Source of the DNA: a virus
Lineage: Duplodnaviria; Caudoviricetes
Length of the DNA stretch: 64,000 bases
Reading direction: 5' to 3' (one strand)
Virus record (IMG/VR): IMGVR_UViG_3300043754_000129
Coordinates: 160,001-224,000 of that record
This document shows, piece after piece, positions 2,416 to 60,035 of the stretch. Each line of letters starts with the position of its first letter. Within the stretch, counting starts at the first letter, position 1. The notes beneath the pieces are model-generated. The model saw only the letters and a list, made by a program, of their open reading frames with translations. It was not told the origin of the DNA and did no database searches. The translations under genes were made by a program, and so were the position numbers.

Positions 2416-4944
2416 TTAGTTGGTGATGACAACGTGTTGGTTATACACCTTGGGGGTGGCGATGTTGCGCGCATCCAGTACACAGACCTGCGCATTCGTA
2501 AAGGCACCGTAGTGACTCTCGTAGTGCGAGATCATGTAAAGTTGCGTAAAGGGCTTGGTTTCCATTAGCGTCTTGATTGCCATGACCGCTGCGGTCCGGT
2601 GTTCCAAGTCCAGGGTCTTACCAAACTCGTCGAGCTTGAGCACGCCGTGTTCCAGATGCAGATACTTCAGGGACACAACCTTCCATGCCAGGTCAACGAT
2701 TTCCTGCATGCCGCTTGAGCCACGCGAGACGTCTGGCACGATGTTATCGCGGGTGCCGACCATCATCGGGAACTTGTAATCCAGCTCCGCTCCCTTTTCA
2801 TTGGCGACGCCACACGGCTGCACTTCCAGTTTGTACGCCCAGATCTTGCGAATGAGTTGGTTCATCTCCATCGTGAAATGGCGAATGAAACCGAACATGC
2901 CTTCCGCGATCAATCCATCCTTGGGCGACAGGGCCTTCAGCGTAGCCTTGAGGGCTTGCTCTTCTTTCTGACGCGCCGCAATCGTCGTCTTCAAATGCTC
3001 AACGATCGCCTTTTGCTGGCGCAGTTGACTGAGCGTCTCTTCCTTACGAGCCAGAGAGCTCTGCACGTGCTGGATACACTGTTGGATCATCTGCAAACGC
3101 ATGGTTTCCACCACGTCGTTTGTGAGCATATCAAGACGCTCGATGTATTCCTTTACTCGTGCCTCCAAGCTGATCGCCGTTTCCAGTTGCTTGCGATACA
3201 CGTAGAACTCATTCAAGTCCTTACGGGCATTCGTGAGCGCCTTGGTCATCTGCTCGATCTCAACGGTGCAGTAGTTCAGCTTCTCCACTGCGTCGTTGAT
3301 GTTCTGGTCCCCGAGTTGCTCTGACTGAGCCAAGAGCTTCTTGAGGTCCTCGATCTCTGCATCGCCGATCTTCGCTTTCACCTCACAGCCCAGATCGTGT
3401 TCAAAGACCTGGAGGGCGGAAAGAATGGAACGCGGCGCTTCGACAACGGCGTTGCGATCCGTGATGTGATCCCAGAACGCAAAGAGAGAAGGCGTGGCCC
3501 GAGTGATCTGGATGAACTGACGGAAAAGCGCACCGTAGCTTTCCTGCTCGGCAATCTTGGCTTCCACTGCCTTCAGGTTCGCTTCCTGCGTTGCGATCTC
3601 TTGCTCGGCCTGCTTGATGAAGTTCTTGAGCGCTTCGTACTGCTGGTCGCTCAAGCCCATGTGGAACTTGTGGTTACACTTGGGGCAGGTGACAGAGCCG
3701 TTCTCCCGGTGTTCGTCGGCGTGTTGCTTGCGTGCTTGGGCCTGAGCCAAATCCCGCGTCTTCTGCTGGATGAGTTCTCGCACCTTCTGGTGATTAGCCT
3801 TGAGCTCTTGCAAGACCGCTGAACCAAAGTACTTGCTTTCGTTGCTCGGGAGTTCTGACAGCACAGCCGTCAAGTCGTGACGAATCGACTCGACCGTGCG
3901 AAGCGCATCCGTCGGATCAGCACTCACCAGTTCCAGCTTCAGCCGGCGTTCCTTCAGATGGTTCAGGCGCGTCTCAGCAGTCGCCGCAATCTTCTTGCGC
4001 ACCGACTCGATCCCGTCTGCCCCTTGCTTCTTCAGGATGTCCACGGTCTCTTTCAACTTCCCATGGTCGCCCACCATCTTCGCAAGCACTGCCTCTTGCG
4101 CCGTGATGTGTTCCTTGATGTCTTCGATGTAGTTCTGCACATCGTCAATCGAGTTAAACGTCACGTGTTGCAGCTGACCCCAGTCATCGCGATAGAGGTG
4201 CGCCGGCGACTCGATCTTCATGTGCAACAGTTGCTCAGAGATCGACTTCAGTTGCGTTTCTGTGCGTTCCCGTTCCGACTGCACTTCTTGCAACGGCCGC
4301 TTAATGGGAGCGCGCATCTCGAAGAGGCTCGAGAGTTCCGTATGCAGTTGCTTGACTTCAGCGATGAGGATGTGCTGCTCTTCTTCCGTGATGATCTTGT
4401 TCTGCTCAATCACCAGCGAACGCTTATCCAGATCGAGCGCCCCCACGACACTGCGATGCTCTTTGCTGAGCTTATCGAATACACTGATCGCGTAGTCAAA
4501 GGAGACGTCGTTGAGCAGCGTGAACCATTCGCGGCGCGCGCCCGGTCCCAGATCCGTCAGTCGCACGAGCCCCAGTTCCAGCTCATGGATGTCCGGCGTG
4601 ATACCGAAGTGCTGACGCACCAGTTCCTTTTGCACCGCAGCCGTGCCACCCGGGTTCAGTTCCTCGCCGTCCTTCTGGAAGCTATGGATCTGCTTGCGGG
4701 AGAAGTCGCTGGTCAAAATGTAGGTAAAACCGCGATCAACAATATGAATCTCTTTGCAGCCGTCTTTGAGGTAATCGGCCGGATTCGCAGGTAGGGGCGT
4801 CAACTCCTGCAACAAGGAGGACTTCCCGCTACCGTTGGTGCCCAGAACCATCTGAATCTGTTCTGTGGGCCGAATTTCAAAGCGCAACACTTGGTTCAAT
4901 GCGAACCGCTTAAAGCCTTTCAAAATCAGGGCAGTGTAGCGCAT
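2416..4944 (-). CDS. sbcC: SbcC/Rad50-like SMC ATPase (phiKZ gp165-like)
   Basis: Walker A GTNGSGKS, long coiled coil with central zinc hook CPKC, signature SSGMQ, Walker B LKLDEFGKTLD, H-loop ISH. Confidence 0.9.
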   Translation of the reverse strand: MRYTALILKGFKRFALNQVLRFEIRPTEQIQMVLGTNGSGKSSLLQELTPLPANPADYLKDGCKEIHIVDRGFTYILTSDFSRKQIHSFQKDGEELNPGGTAAVQKELVRQHFGITPDIHELELGLVRLTDLGPGARREWFTLLNDVSFDYAISVFDKLSKEHRSVVGALDLDKRSLVIEQNKIITEEEQHILIAEVKQLHTELSSLFEMRAPIKRPLQEVQSERERTETQLKSISEQLLHMKIESPAHLYRDDWGQLQHVTFNSIDDVQNYIEDIKEHITAQEAVLAKMVGDHGKLKETVDILKKQGADGIESVRKKIAATAETRLNHLKERRLKLELVSADPTDALRTVESIRHDLTAVLSELPSNESKYFGSAVLQELKANHQKVRELIQQKTRDLAQAQARKQHADEHRENGSVTCPKCNHKFHMGLSDQQYEALKNFIKQAEQEIATQEANLKAVEAKIAEQESYGALFRQFIQITRATPSLFAFWDHITDRNAVVEAPRSILSALQVFEHDLGCEVKAKIGDAEIEDLKKLLAQSEQLGDQNINDAVEKLNYCTVEIEQMTKALTNARKDLNEFYVYRKQLETAISLEARVKEYIERLDMLTNDVVETMRLQMIQQCIQHVQSSLARKEETLSQLRQQKAIVEHLKTTIAARQKEEQALKATLKALSPKDGLIAEGMFGFIRHFTMEMNQLIRKIWAYKLEVQPCGVANEKGAELDYKFPMMVGTRDNIVPDVSRGSSGMQEIVDLAWKVVSLKYLHLEHGVLKLDEFGKTLDLEHRTAAVMAIKTLMETKPFTQLYMISHYESHYGAFTNAQVCVLDARNIATPKVYNQHVVITN

Positions 4945-51179: not shown

Positions 51180-53423
51180 TTAGGAAGGGTACTGCGGCGT
51201 TGGTGCGGGACCTGCAACGCGCTCGATCAGAACTGTAATCGGCGTCATGATTGCACCAACAAAACCAGCCGGGTTACCTGCCAGACCACCTTCAGTCGGC
51301 TGCCAGCCAGCAACACCTGCAACCGTATCGTTGCCATAACTGGCCACGCTTGTCCAGCCAGAGCCAGAATACGTTTGCGTGGCCCACAGCGGCATCGGAA
51401 TCACCTGATTGGGGCCGCTATAGACCCCACAGGCGCTTGCGGCGCTCGTGCAGTTGCCCCACATAGCGTCTTCATTTGCAAAGGCGCCAGAGACCGTATT
51501 GATGAAGTCCGTCACACTAGCAAAGACCCCATCAACAGCCGCATGGGCGGTCACCGTGTTACCGATGCTGAAGCCCGTTGTCTCGGTGCCGCTGTAGTTC
51601 ACCAGTTGCGTGCCCACAGCCACAGGACCATTAGCACCAAAAGCATTCGTCCACAGCGAGTCGATGTCGCTGTCCGTGTTGATCGGCACGGCCGTCGGCA
51701 GCGAGGCCTTGAACGCCGGCAAGAAGTCCAGAGCCGGTGAGAGCGAACTGGAACCCACACCACCCGGGTAGTTGTAACCCGGTGCATTCTCATTGCCACC
51801 CGGGGTCGTGCCCGCAGGCATTTCCTGGTTAGCAATCGACATGAAGCCCGTCGCGTCGCTGTAGTTCGTGACGCCATTGATGCTCGTCGAGCTCGTGTAG
51901 TTCGGTTGTTCGAGGATGAAGTTCACCCCCAGCCAGCCAAACTCCGTCGCCTCGTTGAAGTTGTAGATCAGCGGCTGAACTTCCATCTCCAACGCTTGAC
52001 CCGCATGCGCGAACTGATACGTGTAGGTCGGCGCGTACGGCACGTAGTACAGATTGATCGACGCGGTGATCTGCGTGTTGTCTGCAAACACACCCTGCAC
52101 CGTCAACGTGAAGACCGTATCAGAGACATTGCCGCCATCGACGTGCAGCTGCCAAGCAGCGGCTGCGTACACCGATTGCCCGCTCAGGTTGTTCGGGCTC
52201 GTGAAGCTCGATCCACTCGGATCCACCACGGTGGCCGACATCACATTCCACTGGACTGGCTGGATGCTCTCCGGTTGATTGTTCGCCGGATTGATGAGCG
52301 TCAAGTCCAGATAGCAATCTGCGGTGCCGCCTGTGAAGGCCACCTTGGCGTTGTTCGCGGGCTGCCAGCCGGCTGTACCGTCGACGGTGTCGTACATCGT
52401 GCCGTTGAGTTGCAGCGGCAGCATCTCGGGACCACCTTCAGCCCAGTTCTGTTGCCAGCTGGGGCGCACACCTACGACACCCGGATTGCTGGTCGTCGGA
52501 TAGCTGAAGGCCGAAACCTTCGTCAGCGTCACCGTGCCCACAATCGTCGAGTTATCCCCGTACGTGCCGGTGAGGGTCAGGGTCGTGACTTCATCCATCA
52601 CGAGGTTATCGCCATCTTGCGGCAGATACGACAGATACCATTCGGCATCCGAATACACCGACGTGCCATTACCACCAGGTGCTGAGACAGACGAGTTGCC
52701 CATCGTGATGTTGCTGCTGACCGCCGTGATCGCCCACGACGTTGGCTGTTCCGTTTCCAGTTGCAGGGTGCTGGAGTTGATGACGGCGATTTCCAGATCC
52801 GCCTCACCCGAACCATTTTCCGCATACTGAATCGGATTGGTGGCCGCATTCGCCCAAGGCGCGGTGCCATCCACGTTGAAATACATCGTGGAGCCGATCT
52901 TGGTGACTTCCCCATACTGACTCGGCGAGCCCCAACCTTGGAACCAGGCAGGACGCACGCCCAGCACCGGCGTAGGCGGTGTGACGCCATCGGACGAGCC
53001 ACCATCACTCGACCCAGTGCCATCGCCACTCGTGCCGTCTGAGCCCGTCGGAATGATGTCGCCAATCGAAGAGCCCGTGACGTTGGTGATCACTGTCGCG
53101 GTACTCAGGTCCGCGTAGTAGCCACCATTGGTCGCACGCATCGGGAACTCAACAGCCGTCACCCAATGCGTCGTCACCGCCGCCGTGTTGTAACACACGC
53201 AGATTTGTCGCACCCAACCACTTTCATCATTGTTGGGGTCATCCGAGAACGTCACAAAGAACAGTGTCGCATTCGGATACTTCGCCTGCGCGATTGTGGT
53301 CGCCTGCTGAACCAGAGCATGCAGCGTGTTGTAGTCCGTCTGGTTCAGTGTGATCTGTTGGATCACGGCGTCCGCAAGTTGCGCCAGAGTCCGAAAACCC
53401 TGACGCCCGAAAATCAGAGACAT
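51180..53423 (-). CDS. putative surface/receptor-binding structural protein with tandem duplicated beta-rich domain
   Basis: T/S/G/N-rich; two ~150-aa repeats beginning GVRPAWFQGW and GVRPSWQQNW, each with M.Y..VDGTA.W and SVY..A.W.L. Confidence 0.6.
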   Translation of the reverse strand: MSLIFGRQGFRTLAQLADAVIQQITLNQTDYNTLHALVQQATTIAQAKYPNATLFFVTFSDDPNNDESGWVRQICVCYNTAAVTTHWVTAVEFPMRATNGGYYADLSTATVITNVTGSSIGDIIPTGSDGTSGDGTGSSDGGSSDGVTPPTPVLGVRPAWFQGWGSPSQYGEVTKIGSTMYFNVDGTAPWANAATNPIQYAENGSGEADLEIAVINSSTLQLETEQPTSWAITAVSSNITMGNSSVSAPGGNGTSVYSDAEWYLSYLPQDGDNLVMDEVTTLTLTGTYGDNSTIVGTVTLTKVSAFSYPTTSNPGVVGVRPSWQQNWAEGGPEMLPLQLNGTMYDTVDGTAGWQPANNAKVAFTGGTADCYLDLTLINPANNQPESIQPVQWNVMSATVVDPSGSSFTSPNNLSGQSVYAAAAWQLHVDGGNVSDTVFTLTVQGVFADNTQITASINLYYVPYAPTYTYQFAHAGQALEMEVQPLIYNFNEATEFGWLGVNFILEQPNYTSSTSINGVTNYSDATGFMSIANQEMPAGTTPGGNENAPGYNYPGGVGSSSLSPALDFLPAFKASLPTAVPINTDSDIDSLWTNAFGANGPVAVGTQLVNYSGTETTGFSIGNTVTAHAAVDGVFASVTDFINTVSGAFANEDAMWGNCTSAASACGVYSGPNQVIPMPLWATQTYSGSGWTSVASYGNDTVAGVAGWQPTEGGLAGNPAGFVGAIMTPITVLIERVAGPAPTPQYPS

Positions 53424-53444: not shown

Positions 53445-54017
53445 TTATCCAGCCATAGCCAGACGAACGGCTCGCATCGGATCGTTGTAGTGAGCGTTCA
53501 AGCTCAGCCCATTACTGTCGATCTGTACGGCCACCGGGAAGTTGTGATTGCCAAGCGCCTGGAGTGCACGCGCAGCCTTGATCACATTGTCAAGCGCTTC
53601 GAGCTCTTCTTTGCTTACTTTCCACTTGTTCTCGCGCGCCAGCTTCTCGGCTTCGCTTTCTTCCGGCAGACTGAACGTCACTGCACCGTAATCGTGCAGG
53701 TTCAGGGTCAACTGCATCTCGCCGATCACTTCCGCGTTGTGGAAATGGTTGCCCGGCAGACTGACTTGAAACACGATCTTGGGTTTGACCGTGTCCGCAT
53801 CGACGAGACGGCTAAACTTGTACTTCGGATTGAACGTACGACCCGCGTTCTTCACCTTACCTTCTTCGGCGATGGCTTCAGCACGCTTGACCAGTTGCGT
53901 GATGTCGTCATTCACCATGAAGTCTTGCAGCTCGTTGCGCAGGAAGAAGATCCCGCTGATTTCCTTGTTCAGAATCGCGTCGAGCGTTTTGATGTGTTTT
54001 TCTTGCAGCATAGCCAT
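53445..54017 (-). CDS. hypothetical protein
   Basis: 190 aa; protein-like composition. Confidence 0.7.
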   Translation of the reverse strand: MAMLQEKHIKTLDAILNKEISGIFFLRNELQDFMVNDDITQLVKRAEAIAEEGKVKNAGRTFNPKYKFSRLVDADTVKPKIVFQVSLPGNHFHNAEVIGEMQLTLNLHDYGAVTFSLPEESEAEKLARENKWKVSKEELEALDNVIKAARALQALGNHNFPVAVQIDSNGLSLNAHYNDPMRAVRLAMAG

Positions 54018-54088
54018 GATTGGTTCTCGGTGGTTGTAGGTTGACTAGCCTCATACGATCCCGAGGCGTGTAAGTTTCTACTCGTACT

Positions 54089-54547
54089 TTACAGTGCCTG
54101 GATCGCGCGGATGCGGATGGCGTTGAAGGGATCCGGCTTCGCTTCCATGCGCAGGATGGCACCTTCGGGGCGTTCCCAGGTGAAGGGCATCTCATCGCCT
54201 TCGCTGTTCAGCTGGCTCTTGTCATAGCGCACGAAGTCAGCCACGTAGTAGTGGTTATCCGTGCCGCGAAAGAGGTGCTCGCGTTTCTTGCCCATCGGAT
54301 GTTCGGCGGGTAGGTTCACTCCGAGCGGGCGGATGTTGGTAATCACCACCCCGACTTCTTCCAGGCTTTCCTTGGCGACCGTTTCTTCTGCCGTGTGGTT
54401 CTCTTCCACCCCGCCGCCGGGGAAGTTGTAGCAGACCGTCATACCGTTCACCCGCACCTGACCGAGCAGGATGCGACCTTCCTTCTTGATGATCACGCGC
54501 GCCACCATGCGCAGGGGAAGATGCGAACGATCGATGTTTTGTTCCAT
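54089..54547 (-). CDS. Nudix hydrolase
   Basis: Nudix box FPGGGVEENHTAEETVAKESLEEVG. Confidence 0.85.
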   Translation of the reverse strand: MEQNIDRSHLPLRMVARVIIKKEGRILLGQVRVNGMTVCYNFPGGGVEENHTAEETVAKESLEEVGVVITNIRPLGVNLPAEHPMGKKREHLFRGTDNHYYVADFVRYDKSQLNSEGDEMPFTWERPEGAILRMEAKPDPFNAIRIRAIQAL

Positions 54548-54661
54548 TGCTTTGCTCCGTTTGGTTTGTTGTTGTGACCTTGATTGGTAGGTCAGTGGCA
54601 TTATATCTGTCTGACTTTTCTTTCATTGCGGCATAAGGGGCGGGACTAGCCCGCCAGCCTT

Positions 54662-55159
54662 TTACCACATCAGGTAGTTGGGCGGTGTGTCACCCTTGCC
54701 CCCACCGAGGAGCGTGACTTGCTTATTCGCGAGCCACTTCACGAGATCGACCTTTTCCTTATTCAGGATGTTCTTGTCGATCGTAGCCTGAGTCTTCCAC
54801 TCAGTCTTGATCTGGTTGTGCTCGTTGGCGTTCTTCTGCCACCCGTCTTCTTCCGCCAAGCGGATCGTGTACAAGAAGAGTTCGAGTTGCTTGAGCTCGG
54901 CGAGCGTCGGCGCCACTTCCATCGGGAAGCGCACCCGGATATGGTTGCCCCGGCGCTCATACTCGGTCGACTGGAACTTCTTCTCGATCATCGAGGCGAA
55001 TGCCATTGCAATGGCTTCATCCCGACTGGAGGTCGTATAGAGCCACTCGTTCGATTCGGTCTCGTCCCATTTGACGATCTCACCGCTGCGCAGGTAACCC
55101 GGCATCAGTTCGTTCTGGTCGAACCCCGAGCCGTGATACAGCAATTTCTCAATAGCCAT
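54662..55159 (-). CDS. putative ADP-ribosyltransferase-fold protein
   Basis: N-terminal LYHGS, central WLYTTSSRDEAIAMA, LYTI strand and late EW, matching the H-Y-E ART pattern. Confidence 0.4.
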   Translation of the reverse strand: MAIEKLLYHGSGFDQNELMPGYLRSGEIVKWDETESNEWLYTTSSRDEAIAMAFASMIEKKFQSTEYERRGNHIRVRFPMEVAPTLAELKQLELFLYTIRLAEEDGWQKNANEHNQIKTEWKTQATIDKNILNKEKVDLVKWLANKQVTLLGGGKGDTPPNYLMW

Positions 55160-55171
55160 TATTAGTTCTCG

Positions 55172-55198
55172 GAATAAGAGGGGAGCCGAAGCTCCCCC
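55172..55198 (-). terminator. intrinsic terminator-like hairpin ending the oxygenase operon
   Basis: GGGGAGC-UUCG-GCUCCCC followed by UCUUAUU. Confidence 0.7.
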
Positions 55199-55203
55199 GG
55201 CGT

Positions 55204-55758
55204 TTAACGCGTGATACCGTGCTTGTACATGAAGCGGCGCATGTCGTCCATGGCAGTCTTCGTCAGGAGCGTGTTGTACATCGAACGATCCCAGACCTTC
55301 GCTACCAACTCCGCACCCATGTCCTGCTCCATATGGTTCGCGACTTCGATAGCGATCAGCTCATGGATTTCCACATTGGTCACCATGTGGCTATGAAAGC
55401 CAAAGCGATTGTGGATGCTATTGTCTTCGAACGCATCGAAGAACGCCTTCGGACGCTTGGCCACGCAGAACAAATACGCAAGCCACTCCGCCTTCGTGCC
55501 AATCAGGGCCTGGAGCAGATCCCGATCGGTAAACGAGGCACTGGGCGTCGTGAAGATGTTCGTGCCATAGATCGAGTGGAACAACCCCGCGACCTGGACG
55601 TGCTCGGGCATCCCCCACTTCTTCAGGAGGTCTCGCGTACCCTTCAGGTGTTCGAAAAGAGTCCGGCCCGTATGACTGGTCGTGTCCGTATGGAACTGCT
55701 TGAGACAGTCCTCATACGGATCGTAGTCGTGCGCCACTACCGCGATGGGAAACCCCAT
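55204..55758 (-). CDS. HD-like protein resembling DUF6817
   Basis: HTGRTLFEHLKGTRDLLKKWG..AGLFHSIYGT motif; TGATG coupling to the oxygenase gene. Confidence 0.7.
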   Translation of the reverse strand: MGFPIAVVAHDYDPYEDCLKQFHTDTTSHTGRTLFEHLKGTRDLLKKWGMPEHVQVAGLFHSIYGTNIFTTPSASFTDRDLLQALIGTKAEWLAYLFCVAKRPKAFFDAFEDNSIHNRFGFHSHMVTNVEIHELIAIEVANHMEQDMGAELVAKVWDRSMYNTLLTKTAMDDMRRFMYKHGITR

Positions 55759-56387
55759 CACGCAGCTTCCGTCGGCATGACGGGCTTGGCACCCACGTGC
55801 GACTTGAACACGAGTGCCGTACGCAGATGCGGACAGTCGCGCGCCGGCGCATTCGCCTTGTGCGGGATGTGGCCCGGGAACGTCACGATACGGAACGGCA
55901 CGGCCGCTGCGGCCTTGATGATGTCCTTCTCGTCGAGCGAGTAGAACAGCGTCTCGCCGCCCCAGGGTGCCTTCCAGTCCGGGTTCGTGTAGATGATCGT
56001 CGAGAAGTAGTTCTCGGTGTCGCGGTTGTCGACGTGGATGTAGCCTTCCGTGCCGAACGTGTGGGCGTTGCCATACGCGCGCAGCGGCTCGTGGCCTTGC
56101 AGGATCGTCTTGCTCAGCAGATCCCACACTTGATACACGGAGAAGTTCTCCGGCTTTTGGCGCAGCTGGTCCGCACAGTTCACGCGGCTATTGAGGTCGC
56201 CACCTGCGAAGTGCGTGTGCCAGAAGCTGTACTTGTCCTTCTCGGCGTTGCTCTTCCAGCCATAGGCCCAACGCGGCTGCTTCATGAGCGCGGCGATGGC
56301 GTTCTGGAGCTCAGCCGGGATCAGTCCGTCATGGATCTGAATGCGGGCGATGAGGTCAGCGTGCTTCGTTTGAATTGCTTGGTTCAT
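55758..56387 (-). CDS. 2OG-Fe(II) oxygenase (prolyl-4-hydroxylase-like), copy 3
   Basis: HVD, IIY..W...WGGETLFY, FPGHIPH, LRTALVFK. Confidence 0.85.
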   Translation of the reverse strand: MNQAIQTKHADLIARIQIHDGLIPAELQNAIAALMKQPRWAYGWKSNAEKDKYSFWHTHFAGGDLNSRVNCADQLRQKPENFSVYQVWDLLSKTILQGHEPLRAYGNAHTFGTEGYIHVDNRDTENYFSTIIYTNPDWKAPWGGETLFYSLDEKDIIKAAAAVPFRIVTFPGHIPHKANAPARDCPHLRTALVFKSHVGAKPVMPTEAA

Positions 56388-56397
56388 GGTTCTCTTC

Positions 56398-57021
56398 TTA
56401 CATGCGGAGGATCTGCTTCGAGCGGAACGAGAGCAGCGGAAGGTATTGCGGAGCTTCACGGGTCGGCCCGTTCGGCTTGTGGGGCAACAGTCCCGGGAAC
56501 GTGATCACGCGGAACGGTTTCGGTTCCACCGCGCAGATGATGTCATTCATCTCACGATCGTAGAAGACCATCTCGCCACCCCAATGAGCTTGCCACTCAT
56601 CGAAGGCAAAGATAATCGTCGAACGATAGTTCGTCAGGTTCAGGCCATTGCCCATCTTACCCTGATCCTCAGGATCAGTGTTGTCACCGTGCGCATAGCC
56701 TTCGCAGCCGTGATGAAACCCAATCACGAAGGCGCGCATGAGACTGTGGCCTTTCAGGAAGGTACTCGTAAAGAGCTTCCAGATTTCAGCCGAGTCGATC
56801 TGGTGACCGTCACGCATGAGGTTCTCTTCTGCGTTTTGGTTGCCGCGCAACGGATTCGCCACGCTGCGGCCCCAGACGGGATACTCGTCCCAGGGCGCGG
56901 TCTGCCAGCTATAGGTCCAGAGTTCCTTCTTCACCGTAGCGGCGAGTCGGTCCTGAATGTCTTTCGGGATGATGTCGTCATAGACGTGCACCTCATCCAT
57001 CAAACTACCCATTGCTTTCAT
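56398..57021 (-). CDS. 2OG-Fe(II) oxygenase, copy 2
   Basis: HGD, WQAHWGGEMVFY, FPGLLPH; the usual 2OG-binding Arg position reads LPLLSF. Confidence 0.8.
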   Translation of the reverse strand: MKAMGSLMDEVHVYDDIIPKDIQDRLAATVKKELWTYSWQTAPWDEYPVWGRSVANPLRGNQNAEENLMRDGHQIDSAEIWKLFTSTFLKGHSLMRAFVIGFHHGCEGYAHGDNTDPEDQGKMGNGLNLTNYRSTIIFAFDEWQAHWGGEMVFYDREMNDIICAVEPKPFRVITFPGLLPHKPNGPTREAPQYLPLLSFRSKQILRM

Positions 57022-57602
57022 GTTTCTCTTCTTTTCCTCGAACGAAAACCGAGCACACCACGCATCTTGTCAGTCTCTCGTGTTGGGGGGCTGATGCGGT
57101 GAGGGATGTGGCCGGGCGAGATGATGACGCGAAGCGGCTTAGGCTCAATCACCTTGATGATATCCGACTCATCTTGCGTGAAGTACATGAGCTCCCCGCC
57201 CCAATGAGCTTGCCACTCACTGTGGATATAGAGAAGCGTCGTGTAGTAATCCTCTTCTTTGCCATCGATGTGGACGTGACCATCCATGCCTTGCGTGAAG
57301 CTCAGCGCCCAAAAGCGCAAGAGTTCATGCTCGGGCAAGTACTTCTGTTTGATGATCGCCCAGAACTTACCAAGGAGGTAGGTGCGCCGATCTGCGTAGA
57401 GTTCTGCTTCGCAGTTCCCCAAGTCAGTAGCGTCCGAGCCTCCCATAAACAACGCGCCCCAGTTCTTATACGCGTAGTTATTGGTGGTCCAGTTGTTAGC
57501 CCAAATGGGCTGTTGCGTCAGACGTTGCAACTCCCCGCGCAGCGCCTGAGGAATCGGTACATCGTCGTAGACTTGTACCAATGCTGCCAGGTCTTGTGTC
57601 AT
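57018..57602 (-). CDS. 2OG-Fe(II) oxygenase, copy 1
   Basis: HID, WQAHWGGELMYF, SPGHIPH, MRGVLGFRS. Confidence 0.85.
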   Translation of the reverse strand: MTQDLAALVQVYDDVPIPQALRGELQRLTQQPIWANNWTTNNYAYKNWGALFMGGSDATDLGNCEAELYADRRTYLLGKFWAIIKQKYLPEHELLRFWALSFTQGMDGHVHIDGKEEDYYTTLLYIHSEWQAHWGGELMYFTQDESDIIKVIEPKPLRVIISPGHIPHRISPPTRETDKMRGVLGFRSRKRRET

Positions 57603-57619
57603 TTGTTTAAGCTAGCAAA

Positions 57620-58180
57620 ATAAAAAAAGGGGTAATGCCACAGCCCACTGAGGACGGCCGTGGTACAGCGTTCATCTATCTCATCCGGGGAGACGACCGT
57701 TTCAATAGACTTCTACTGTACCCAAACGCACACTAGCGTTGACGCTCGCACCGATACACTGATGCGCCGAACGGATAATCCTCAGCAGGCTGCGTTCTAG
57801 GAGCAAAGCTCAACCAGAGTACAACTTCCCAGATCCACTGGGCGTACCGAATAGGCAGTCGGGCCAGCAAGAAACCCTTTGCGTGTGGGCAAACACACGT
57901 GGTCTTTTAATCGGTATCAGACCATAGACTGTGAGAACAGCTAAAGAGGAAGCAGTGTATCTGGTACCCCCACGGCACCCTGTGGGCTCTAGGCTGTCTC
58001 ACGACAGTCTGTTGTCAAGCCCATCACACCAACAACCACCACCGAGATAAGGATCTCGTGCCGCACTTTCGCAGGCGTTTCACCTGAGCGTTCCCCGACC
58101 GTGGTAAAGACCACAATCAGAGGCACTGGAGACTTGCACTCCTCTTCAGACAGTATCAACGGTACTACCAGGGATTTCTC
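57620..58180 (-). ncRNA. large structured non-coding RNA of unknown class (~550 nt)
   Basis: No credible ORF. Terminal helix 58160-69/57631-40 is followed by a U-tract. A 14-bp helix (57779-92/57641-54) contains G-U pairs only on the minus strand. A 9-nt loop-mediated pairing links 57953-61 and 57753-61. Many short hairpins, some with GNRA loops. Confidence 0.7.
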
Positions 58181-58208
58181 CCCGCATAGAATAGCCGTCG
58201 TGCGGTTT

Positions 58209-58643
58209 TTACTTATCCATGGCCCCATTGACCGCGCCTTGCACCACGCGGCGCACCAGCGACTTGGGCTTGCGTGCACCGAGGTGCTGATGGTCGTCCG
58301 GGGTCATCGGGATTTCCGAGCTCTGCTTCAGACGCACACCACCGGCCGCTGCCACGAATTGGGCACCGAGCGACACCGCCCCAGCACTGAACGCCATGCT
58401 GTTAAACGAGTGATGCCAGATCGTGTCAAGGTAGGTGAACCACAGGAAGAACACGCCGAACAGTCCGCACAGCAGGTACGGGATCAGACGGGCCGGGTCG
58501 ACGTCACCGTTCCAGCTGGTGAACATGTCACCGCAGACTTTGGCGATGAACGCGAAGACCATCGAGAGTTCTTCCTGGATGAACTTCACCAGGACTTGCA
58601 GGGTCACATACGGGCCAATGCGGGCCCAGAGCTTTTGCCACAT
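58209..58643 (-). CDS. two-TM membrane protein, possibly holin-like
   Basis: GGAG RBS; DMFT..D..RL, two TM segments, AAGG..K..E.P ending reminiscent of small proteobacterial-phage holins. Confidence 0.45.
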   Translation of the reverse strand: MWQKLWARIGPYVTLQVLVKFIQEELSMVFAFIAKVCGDMFTSWNGDVDPARLIPYLLCGLFGVFFLWFTYLDTIWHHSFNSMAFSAGAVSLGAQFVAAAGGVRLKQSSEIPMTPDDHQHLGARKPKSLVRRVVQGAVNGAMDK

Positions 58644-58767
58644 GTTGTTGGTTCTCCAAAAGGTTATACAACACACAATAGAAATCAACAAGAAAAAAAG
58701 ACAGCAAAAAAAGAGGGACCCGAAGGTCCCCCATAAAAGAGTGCGTTCGGCACTCGGAGCAATTCGT

Positions 58768-58995
58768 TCACATGTCCCAGTCCCAAGTCGGCCGAGCAGA
58801 CTGCTCAGCCGCATAGAGGTCCCGGGCACGCTGGGAGATCTGAACAATCGACGAAGGCACGACAGGCGTGGGGACCGGCGCAGCGTTAGGCTTGTAAGGC
58901 CTGCTCTGCCGCTCACGTCTGTCGCGTTCTTGGGCTTCTCGCATAAGCTCCGAGAAGGGTACGAATCCAGTAACTGCATTGACTGCGTCTACCAT
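58768..58995 (-). CDS. small hypothetical protein
   Basis: GGTGAG upstream of ATG; 75 aa. Confidence 0.55.
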   Translation of the reverse strand: MVDAVNAVTGFVPFSELMREAQERDRRERQSRPYKPNAAPVPTPVVPSSIVQISQRARDLYAAEQSARPTWDWDM

Positions 58996-59031
58996 GACTC
59001 ACCTCTGGAGGCTATGCGATGCTTGGGTTAG

Positions 59032-59301
59032 TTAGACGGGTTCCGGTTGGAGATGAAGACGGCTTTTCGCGCCGTTGGTCGTGACCTTGTTGAAGAGGCC
59101 TTCGATACAGAATTCCACAAAGCCAGGTTCAACCGTGCGCACTTCACCCGTGAGCAGGTTGACGTAGGCGCACGTCTTGTGGCAGGGTGCGACTTCCTTC
59201 GGTGCCGTCGAAGCGACGTCAGCGAAGTGCAGCTTCAAGATGACGCCGATGAAGACTGCGAGCAGCAGGACAGCGAAGATTGCGTGGGCGTAGTGATGCA
59301 T
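59032..59301 (-). CDS. small N-terminal-TM protein
   Basis: AGGAG RBS; AIFAVLLLAVFIGVIL. Confidence 0.65.
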   Translation of the reverse strand: MHHYAHAIFAVLLLAVFIGVILKLHFADVASTAPKEVAPCHKTCAYVNLLTGEVRTVEPGFVEFCIEGLFNKVTTNGAKSRLHLQPEPV

Positions 59302-59318
59302 GTTCTTTCTCCTGACAG

Positions 59319-59678
59319 TTAAGCGAAGATGCTCAGGTCCTGGGCGCTCTTGAGGATCTTGCGATCCTTCGAGACCTTGGCCATGAGGCGCATTTGATGG
59401 GCGAACTGAATCGACGAGACGATCAGCGTGAAGACCGCAGCCACGTTCCAGCCGAGCAGCAGCGGGATGTAGCAGCTGATCAGGATGATACTCACACCGA
59501 AGAAGCCGTGCATGACGCGACCGTACTTCAGGTACTGGTTCGCTGCGTTGTAGAGCTGCACGTCGCGGATGATCTTCGCGTAGCTACCCTTACCGAACAC
59601 GCCGTAGAGCGTAGCCGAGGAAAGGACCAGTGCACCGAAGACGATGAAGCTGACGTAGATCGATTGAGCCAGGGACAT
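59319..59678 (-). CDS. three-TM membrane protein
   Basis: GGAG RBS; three hydrophobic segments. Confidence 0.7.
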   Translation of the reverse strand: MSLAQSIYVSFIVFGALVLSSATLYGVFGKGSYAKIIRDVQLYNAANQYLKYGRVMHGFFGVSIILISCYIPLLLGWNVAAVFTLIVSSIQFAHQMRLMAKVSKDRKILKSAQDLSIFA

Positions 59679-59777
59679 GATAACTCCAGATAGGAAATGG
59701 GTAAAGCCCCGCCAGACGTTAGCCCGGCGGGGTACTACAGTGCCACTCCCACTATTGCGTGGGAGGTAGCGGGTGGC

Positions 59778-60035
59778 TTAGTAGCCTTCGCACAGACCCG
59801 GCTGATTATGCCAGGGCGCTTCTGCACGAATGCCGTCCGACGAGAGGCTGAAGAACGCGAGTGCGTCATCGATGCGTTCGCTCAAATCGTTCAGGCGGCG
59901 AATTGCACCGGCGTACTCGTGTTGCATCTCGTCAGCCATGACTTCCGCGATTTCATGCGGCACTGCGTGGTCATGGGCCAGGGCGATGCGGACTGCCAGG
60001 GGCAGGGTACGACGGGCTTGCTTGTTCTTGCTCAT
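59778..60035 (-). CDS. small hypothetical protein
   Basis: TAATG coupling with the upstream ORF. Confidence 0.6.
   Translation of the reverse strand: MSKNKQARRTLPLAVRIALAHDHAVPHEIAEVMADEMQHEYAGAIRRLNDLSERIDDALAFFSLSSDGIRAEAPWHNQPGLCEGY

Follow-up and report, generated by a model that had tools for sequence, protein, structure and literature searches.

A two-step oxidative cascade acting on aspartate was reported in 2025 from a graspetide-type cluster that makes a peptide synthesized on ribosomes and modified after translation (RiPP) (Kim et al. 2025, J Am Chem Soc, PMC12186529). The Fe(II)/2-oxoglutarate (2OG) oxygenase SmaO β-hydroxylates Asp in the GDGDG core of the peptide, and SmaX cleaves the Cβ–Cγ bond of the resulting hydroxy-Asp to yield aminomalonate. 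SmaX is a single-iron atypical HD-domain protein, described as the first HD protein without the metal-binding Asp, and an HHpred search relates it to DUF6817 and HD_4 only. Its iron ligands are H39, H63 and N143 and its substrate is bound by H31, T68, R104 and Q147; mutating any of these seven residues abolishes or nearly abolishes the activity. The report makes no mention of phages for this cascade (PMC12186529). Phage 2OG-Fe(II) oxygenases, of which a cyanophage genome holds several, have been proposed only to serve DNA repair or 2OG consumption, and those of family phrog_274 are without an assigned function in the cyanophage literature (PMC3037559). Here we analyze a four-gene operon at positions 55204-57602 of a 64,000-nucleotide stretch of viral DNA (bases 160001-224000 of the 323,678-bp IMG/VR virus record IMGVR_UViG_3300043754_000129, rated complete by CheckV), hereafter the window. 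The operon consists of three paralogous Fe(II)/2OG oxygenase genes, termed Ox1, Ox2 and Ox3, and one gene of the DUF6817 family. By analogy with SmaO and SmaX, we propose with modest confidence that it encodes a phage version of the hydroxylate-then-cleave cascade, in which the hydroxylase has been triplicated.

Organization of the operon

The four genes are arranged head to tail on the minus strand and are followed by a hairpin:

57018-57602, minus strand: Ox1, PHD/P4H-fold Fe(II)/2OG oxygenase, 194 aa (PF13640, 31.9 bits; phrog_274)
56398-57021, minus strand: Ox2, Fe(II)/2OG oxygenase paralogue, 207 aa (family alignments)
55758-56387, minus strand: Ox3, Fe(II)/2OG oxygenase, 209 aa (AlphaFold2 model, Foldseek)
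55204-55758, minus strand: predicted DUF6817 / SmaX-type atypical HD-domain oxygenase, 184 aa (PF20680, 90.2 bits)
55181-55198, minus strand: UUCG-loop hairpin behind the DUF6817 stop (GGGGAGC-UUCG-GCUCCCC)

The ATG of Ox2 overlaps the TGA of Ox1 (ATGA), a gap of 10 nt separates Ox2 from Ox3, and the Ox3 and DUF6817 genes overlap at TGATG. These open reading frames (ORFs), with their coordinates and tight coupling, and the HxD...H and W..WGGE..F/Y motifs of all three oxygenases agree with an earlier description of the locus made without database searches (the sequence-only reading). That reading also closed the operon with a UUCG terminator. The hairpin does exist; its role as a terminator is weakly supported, as the U-tract behind it is poor (CUCUUAUU) and the element is unconserved, because the next gene abuts or overlaps the DUF6817 stop in the related jumbo phages L008, L010 and L015. 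Terminator-like sites in the region showed no excess, with 4 found against 3.6 expected in shuffles, and the hairpin may be a weak terminator or a stabilizer. A sigma-70 promoter scan of the operon region found none, which is expected because phiKZ-type phages use their own polymerases. The dN/dS ratios across the four genes range from 0.05 to 0.28 (about 0.10 for Ox1 and 0.05 for Ox2), and by this sequence measure all four are under purifying selection.

The DUF6817 protein carries the residue set of SmaX

The fourth protein, previously described as HD-like or DUF6817-like, is the sole copy in the genome and exceeds the PF20680 cut-off of 25.2 bits by far; it can now be assigned more closely as a SmaX-type mono-iron HD-domain oxygenase. 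In an alignment of 39 DUF6817 sequences (A3), where a column was termed conserved if invariant or at least 90% identical, the conserved columns are H29, H37, H61, S62 (invariant), T66, R102, N141 and Q145. Compared by residue numbering and conserved columns, each of the seven essential SmaX residues has a phage counterpart, always at an offset of -2, and Ser62 replaces the HD Asp. We predict that H37, H61 and N141 are the Fe ligands, and that H29, T66, R102 and Q145 contact the substrate.

The AlphaFold2 model of the protein has a mean predicted local distance difference test (pLDDT) score of 94.3. Structural similarity search using Foldseek returned HD-domain folds for nearly all matches, led by Mesh1, SpoT/Rel and small alarmone hydrolases with a template modelling (TM) score of about 0.55, and with TmpB as a weak match at rank 26. 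This pattern mirrors the one reported for SmaX (PMC12186529). Two other assignments were rejected. A small alarmone hydrolase of the Mesh1 type is not supported by PF13328 (HD_4), which scores 14.6 bits against a cut-off of 27.2, and the dyad Asp is absent; an HD-domain diiron oxygenase (PhnZ, TmpB, MIOX) would require the set of four His and two Asp, which is absent, the HD Asp being Ser and the conserved ligand candidates numbering only H37, H61 and N141. A complex prediction of Ox3 with the DUF6817 protein, using the A5 (oxygenase) and A3 alignments as input, gave a score of 0.02, which speaks neither for nor against an interaction.

Fold and catalytic residues of the oxygenases

The three oxygenases share 34-35% identity with each other. 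Against PF13640, with a cut-off of 27 bits, Ox2 and Ox3 score 21.5 and 23.1 bits, respectively, and Ox1 alone passes. A fold model was made for Ox3 (pLDDT 95.1), and Ox1 and Ox2 were placed by alignment to it. Ox3 adopts a double-stranded β-helix fold that is most similar in Foldseek to PHD2 (E 1e-9), with Pseudomonas PPHD and PolD also among the matches; a profile of the oxygenase family searched against solved structures in the PDB found OGFOD1, PolD and PHD2. The protein hydroxylases among the fold and profile matches are PHD2, PPHD/EF-Tu and OGFOD1. The catalytic set of Ox3 comprises the triad H118/D120/H176, in addition to R183 and R189. The family alignment of 80 sequences (A5) shows H118 and D120 without exception, and H176 in 79 of 80. 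R189 opens the strand 189-198 and aligns with the corresponding Arg of PolD in the profile alignment, and an Arg occupies this position in 74 of the 80 members. In Ox1 both the HxD...H triad and the Arg for 2OG are retained, and this protein has a weak match to the model of the Asp β-hydroxylase YhhC.

Two existing names for these proteins were examined and discarded. FlmC (NF052475) is the nearest named model only, with scores of 43, 35 and 60 bits against the NCBIfam cut-off of 240; an eLife 2020 paper treats FlmC itself as a putative cytidylyltransferase and is uninformative on function. The label "DNA endonuclease V", attached to phrog_274 and used in RefSeq, finds no support in Pfam, which matches only 2OG-Fe(II) oxygenase families, or in the double-stranded β-helix fold, and looks like a propagated annotation error. 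Many RefSeq cyanophage genes bearing this label are PHD-fold 2OG-Fe(II) oxygenases, for example in L004 (NC_031242) at 2831-4016.

Coupling of the two families across phages and bacteria

Gene neighbourhoods were counted at the best 80 of 262 IMG/VR loci and the best 80 of 255 bacterial-genome loci that encode DUF6817 relatives. The gene directly upstream, on the same strand, encodes a member of this oxygenase family at 73 of the 80 viral loci (70 of the 75 with upstream room) and at 12 of the 80 bacterial loci. The two called genes overlap or stand at most 10 nt apart in 51/51 viral cases, with overlaps exaggerated by a gene caller that takes the longest ORF. Some of the bacterial loci have TauD-type or 2OG-FeII_Oxy_5 oxygenases nearby instead, as in PMC12186529. 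When 1.84 billion representative proteins were searched using a profile built from the phage oxygenases, 2,592 hits were obtained. Eight of the ten longer hits that were checked are natural oxygenase-DUF6817 fusions, in both domain orders, and they lie among hits with E values of 1e-57 to 1e-35.

The pair is found in three kinds of phage: T4-like marine phages, phages of ~40 kb and the jumbo clade of the window phage. In T4-like marine phages it is inserted between the clamp-loader genes gp44 and gp62; the cultured cyanophage S-RIM50 encodes gp205 and gp206 (phrog_274) followed by gp207 (phrog_20220), with overlapping stops and starts. At T4-like loci (e.g., L039 1668-3101), regA and a RimK-like ATP-grasp protein bearing a Zn-protease domain are encoded behind the pair. 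In the ~40-kb phages the pair sits behind tail and unknown structural genes, and proteins with an Acb2/Tad1 hairpin (anti-CBASS/Thoeris sponges) are encoded a few genes upstream (L013 184-405; L014 1-174). Among bacteria, a relative of Ox3 with 43% identity shares an operon with a GNAT acetyltransferase (L016 6001-7067), and another oxygenase relative (P0112) is fused to a GNAT domain, which suggests a different downstream chemistry in some bacteria.

Ox3 as the ancestral copy and the divergent Ox2

Three relatives of the window phage, L006 (320 kb), L008 (177 kb) and L010 (285 kb), retain three oxygenases, the DUF6817 gene and a protein of ~165 residues, and the Paraburkholderia-associated L015 has a single oxygenase of the Ox3 type. 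In a maximum-likelihood tree of 116 family members, the jumbo-clade copies form one clade (SH-aLRT 95), in which Ox1 and Ox2 group together as sisters with long stems (SH-aLRT 94), and Ox3 and the single-copy gene have short branches. On the basis of these short branches and the long-stemmed sister pair, the tree identifies Ox3 as the ancestral partner of the DUF6817 gene, and Ox1 and Ox2 as fast-diverged duplicates that arose within the jumbo clade.

The second copy had been singled out early for lacking the Arg at the usual 2OG-binding position, with divergence of function suspected. Both the loss and the divergence are real and conserved: Leu replaces the 2OG C5-carboxylate Arg in all four Ox2 orthologues, compared to Arg in 74/80 family members, and in all of them the family Tyr133 is replaced by Phe and 12 inserted residues follow HxD. 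Ox2 retains the iron triad and R183. It also has a lineage-specific Arg in the segment NYRSTIIF, which, judged from its position in the sequence, might substitute for the missing 2OG Arg. Ox2 is not a dead gene, and its binding of the co-substrate must depart from the canonical mode; the Arg-less protein provides a natural experiment on co-substrate use in the PHD fold.

Candidate substrates

The target core of SmaO/SmaX is GDGDG. D/G tracts were defined as at least four DG dipeptides in 25 residues. At the viral loci, such tracts occur in 6 of the 47 genes immediately upstream of the pair, compared to 0 of 369 located elsewhere within six genes (Fisher p 1.5e-6). When tracts were counted irrespective of reading frame, 10 of 73 loci had one no more than 500 nt upstream of the first oxygenase, against 1 of 68 in a control region five-fold larger (p 0.009). 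The tracts form C-terminal tails, such as GDGDTGDGDTG and GGDGGDGGD, seen in a group of ~40-kb phages, and DGFDGFDGFDD. For example, the gene at L035 2550-4361 encodes a 603-aa low-complexity protein with a D/G tail of roughly 45 residues, and its stop overlaps the start of the oxygenase gene. Similar large proteins with (GSPTQ)n or (GPQ)n repeats and D/G tails occur in L019, L022, L024, L025, L027, L044, L062 and L076, and proteins of this kind are translationally coupled to the oxygenase gene. By likeness to the SmaO/SmaX core, the D/G-rich tails of the ~40-kb phages are our best lead as a candidate substrate.

In the window genome, 2 of the 359 called genes contain a D/G tract, one of which encodes a 747-aa protein four genes downstream of the operon on the same strand:

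51180-53423, minus strand: 747-aa protein with a 125-aa N-domain, a linker and an extension of roughly 600 aa
52986-53060, minus strand: S/D/G linker of the 747-aa protein, residues 122-146, with five x-D-G motifs

The linker joins the conserved 125-aa N-domain, which is a stand-alone protein of ~127 aa in relatives, to the phage-specific extension, and the relatives of the window phage are without it. From its sequence, this linker is a weak candidate substrate in the window phage. Searches of PHROG, Pfam and Atlas assigned no family to the 747-aa protein or to the D/G-tailed upstream proteins. No small SmaA-like ORF with GD/DG motifs was found near the pair, either in the window or at the viral loci with a called pair. 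Collagen-like GXY repeats were rejected as a general prolyl-hydroxylase target, since only 4 of 64 viral loci have them and the window lacks them.

Genomic context of the operon

The window phage is a phiKZ-type jumbo phage with a host of the soil betaproteobacterium type. Its 740-aa major head protein matches phrog_3231 and shares 52% identity with that of Burkholderia phage FLC9 and 43% with those of Ralstonia phages RP12 and RP31, and a search of sequencing runs found its DNA in soil metagenomes, with no RNA run among those listed. An isolate assembly of Paraburkholderia sp. BCC1886 contains a 286-kb contig of a related jumbo phage (L015 / L098), which carries the RNA described below, one oxygenase, DUF6817, toxin-antitoxin genes and a PTS_2-RNA (Tpt1-like) gene; it is a host clue and a possible culturable source. 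A megablast of the operon against phage records gave no match. A tblastn search with Ox3 or the DUF6817 protein matched no record among the 249 phages whose major capsid protein is related, and hits were confined to T4-like cyanophages, in line with the view of the sequence-only reading that such a module is unusual in phiKZ-type phages.

The operon is flanked by a structured RNA and by two further genes:

57622-58205, minus strand: conserved structured RNA of ~580 nt directly upstream of Ox1, with compensatory changes
54662-55159, minus strand: 165-aa protein (phrog_13483) with an invariant LYHGS motif, Arr-like
54089-54601, minus strand: Nudix hydrolase gene behind the 165-aa protein

The compensatory changes of the RNA are seen across five jumbo phages (alignment A4), and it carries CUGAUGAG and CGAAAC motifs. 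In 4/5 genomes a hairpin and T-run of its own close the RNA, ~20 nt short of the Ox1 ATG. A scan of positions 54000-60000 against Rfam with E up to 1 and a blastn of the RNA against cultured phage records gave no match. An nhmmer profile of the RNA found jumbo-clade loci only, where the RNA precedes the operon in 5/5 genomes. About 70 other phage loci have the oxygenase-DUF6817 pair without the RNA, and none of these has an upstream gap longer than 300 nt. The functional tie between operon and RNA that had been suggested at first is not supported: the link is one of synteny, possibly with a shared transcript, within the jumbo clade, and the pair does not need the RNA.

The 165-aa protein comes after DUF6817 in every jumbo-clade relative, and resembles the rifampin ADP-ribosyltransferase Arr with a score of 0.94 based on language-model features. 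It is a synteny partner of the operon and at most a candidate member of the pathway; together with the Nudix hydrolase, it may form an ADP-ribosylation module.

Proposed cascade and alternative explanations

The multi-step modification pathway envisaged by the sequence-only reading is supported and can be sharpened to hydroxylation next to a carboxylate followed by oxidative C–C cleavage, a chemistry that is likely because the partner is a SmaX-type mono-iron HD-domain oxygenase. In the proposed scheme, the Fe(II)/2OG oxygenases would hydroxylate a carbon adjoining a carboxylate, most likely the Cβ of an Asp that precedes a Gly, on a protein or peptide substrate. With one iron on His37/His61/Asn141, the DUF6817 enzyme would then oxidatively cleave the resulting α-hydroxy acid. 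The expected product is aminomalonate, corresponding to a net change of -14 Da per Asp, and should readily decarboxylate to Gly. Aminomalonate is a metal-chelating residue resembling γ-carboxyglutamate (Gla), and decays readily to glycine. Ox3 is the original partner, Ox1 and Ox2 probably recognize other target sequences, and Ox2 must bind its co-substrate in a non-canonical way. The family assignments, the conservation of catalytic residues, the coupling and natural fusion of the genes and their co-occurrence across phages are observed; what reaction takes place, at which residue and on which substrate is inferred, and the substrate may be virion or host proteins.

Several observations weigh against the cascade. 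The nearest solved structures of the oxygenases are prolyl, not aspartyl, hydroxylases, and Ox2 lacks the usual 2OG-binding Arg. The match to the seven SmaX residues comes from numbering and conserved columns and not from a direct alignment with SmaX. The D/G tails occur at only about 12-14% of viral loci, which are moreover interrelated (two related oxygenase clades, with two loci near-identical), so that their counts are not independent; a strict D/G-tract scan of L006, L008, L010 and L015 found none. In addition, RiPP hallmarks such as a precursor peptide, leader or PCAT are missing beside the operon, where the neighbours are phage genes.

The same two-step chemistry could instead act on a small molecule, such as a free amino acid, a carboxylate- or phosphonate-like metabolite or a host signal, and serve an auxiliary metabolic or detoxifying purpose. 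This would agree with PhnY/PhnZ and TmpA/TmpB, which are Fe/2OG and HD-oxygenase pairs acting on small molecules (PMC12186529), with the presence of the small-molecule enzyme PolD among the fold matches of Ox3, with the bacterial relatives fused or adjacent to GNAT acetyltransferases, and with the occurrence of the pair in very different phage types without a common neighbouring gene. We nevertheless consider it unlikely, as the DUF6817 site has the mono-iron set of SmaX and not the diiron set with six ligands found in PhnZ and TmpB, the oxygenases mostly match protein hydroxylases by fold and profile, and one phage group encodes D/G-tailed proteins directly upstream. It appears quite improbable that the genes work independently, the oxygenases as protein hydroxylases of host translation factors or the virion and the DUF6817 protein as a (p)ppGpp or nucleotide hydrolase of the Mesh1 or small alarmone hydrolase type. 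The HD Asp is replaced by a family-invariant Ser, the HD_4 score stays below its cut-off, the fusions and the 73/80 co-occurrence point to a joint function, and the characterized DUF6817-type enzyme SmaX is an oxygenase (PMC12186529); these outweigh the alarmone hydrolases as top fold matches of the DUF6817 model and PHD2 and PPHD as the nearest oxygenase structures.

The module might instead act on nucleic acids, by oxidizing bases of DNA or RNA or by maturing the structured RNA upstream; RNA or base modification had been among the initial suggestions. The operon does stand behind the RNA in all five jumbo-clade genomes, and RefSeq and PHROG attach an endonuclease name to the oxygenase family. 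However, the RNA is absent from all other pair-carrying phage loci and in four of the five genomes is closed by a separate hairpin and T-run ahead of the Ox1 start, the endonuclease name lacks support from Pfam or the fold, and the fold is PHD-like and not that of AlkB, TET or JBP, with protein hydroxylases as the nearest solved relatives; this makes such a role very improbable. We give hardly any credence to oxygenases that mainly consume 2OG and so reshape host nitrogen or carbon signalling, with no specific prime substrate. Although the abundance of 2OG-Fe(II) oxygenases in cyanophages was proposed to be explained by 2OG-related functions (Sullivan et al. 2010, PMC3037559), 2OG consumption leaves the obligate coupling and fusion to DUF6817, the three diverged copies and the loss of the Arg in Ox2 unexplained, and the present host is of a soil betaproteobacterium type and not a cyanobacterium.

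Building on the SmaO/SmaX-like cascade, we tentatively put forward a wider picture, which is possible but remains rather doubtful: phages may rewrite the aspartates of D/G tracts in their own virion or in host proteins into β-hydroxy-aspartate and aminomalonate, the enzyme pair having spread across T4-like, roughly 40-kb and jumbo phages, and the jumbo-phage hydroxylase having been triplicated into three specificities, one of them without canonical use of 2OG. If true, no aminomalonate protein modification would have preceded it in viruses, and a function would for the first time be assigned to a large class of phage 2OG oxygenases, which have been without a known substrate since at least 2010. 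In 2025 the cascade was described only for RiPP and nonribosomal peptide clusters, and would here be extended to viruses and possibly to full-length proteins. The link between phrog_274 and a SmaX-type partner amounts to a concrete chemical hypothesis with clear mass signatures, testable in cultured phages such as S-RIM50.

Comparison with known systems

Like PHD2/EGLN1, PPHD and OGFOD1, the phage oxygenases possess a double-stranded β-helix with HxD...H and an Arg that opens the last strand; however, they share only 13-18% identity with these proteins and have no HIF, EF-Tu or uS12 context. Unlike in prolyl hydroxylases, the partnership with DUF6817 implies a target adjacent to a carboxylate and not a proline.

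The scheme also resembles PhnY/PhnZ and TmpA/TmpB, in which hydroxylation beside an acid group is followed by a four-electron oxidative cleavage by an adjacently encoded HD-fold enzyme. Those HD enzymes are mixed-valent diiron proteins that cleave the C–P bond of small phosphonate substrates, whereas the phage protein is without the diiron set of four His and two Asp; furthermore, the hydroxylases PhnY and TmpA belong to other 2OG families (PhyH, TauD-like) than the phage oxygenases.

Compared to gp205-gp206 and gp207 of S-RIM50, the operon has the same phrog_274/phrog_20220 order with overlapping stops and starts. It differs in sequence (25-29% identity), in host and genome type, and in having three oxygenase copies instead of two.

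Compared to SmaO/SmaX, the locus is phage-encoded and is without a precursor peptide, leader, PCAT or class-defining RiPP enzyme. The window phage has three diverged hydroxylases, one without the 2OG Arg, and the candidate substrates in phages are tails or linkers of large proteins. The likeness to SmaO lies in the proposed role and in gene coupling. Both systems couple the gene of an Fe/2OG hydroxylase to that of a DUF6817 (PF20680) atypical HD protein, in which the HD Asp is absent and the His/His/Asn iron ligands and His/Thr/Arg/Gln substrate residues occur at matching spacing. Natural two-domain fusions of the partners also exist, and the D/G targets of some phages recall the GDGDG core of SmaA.

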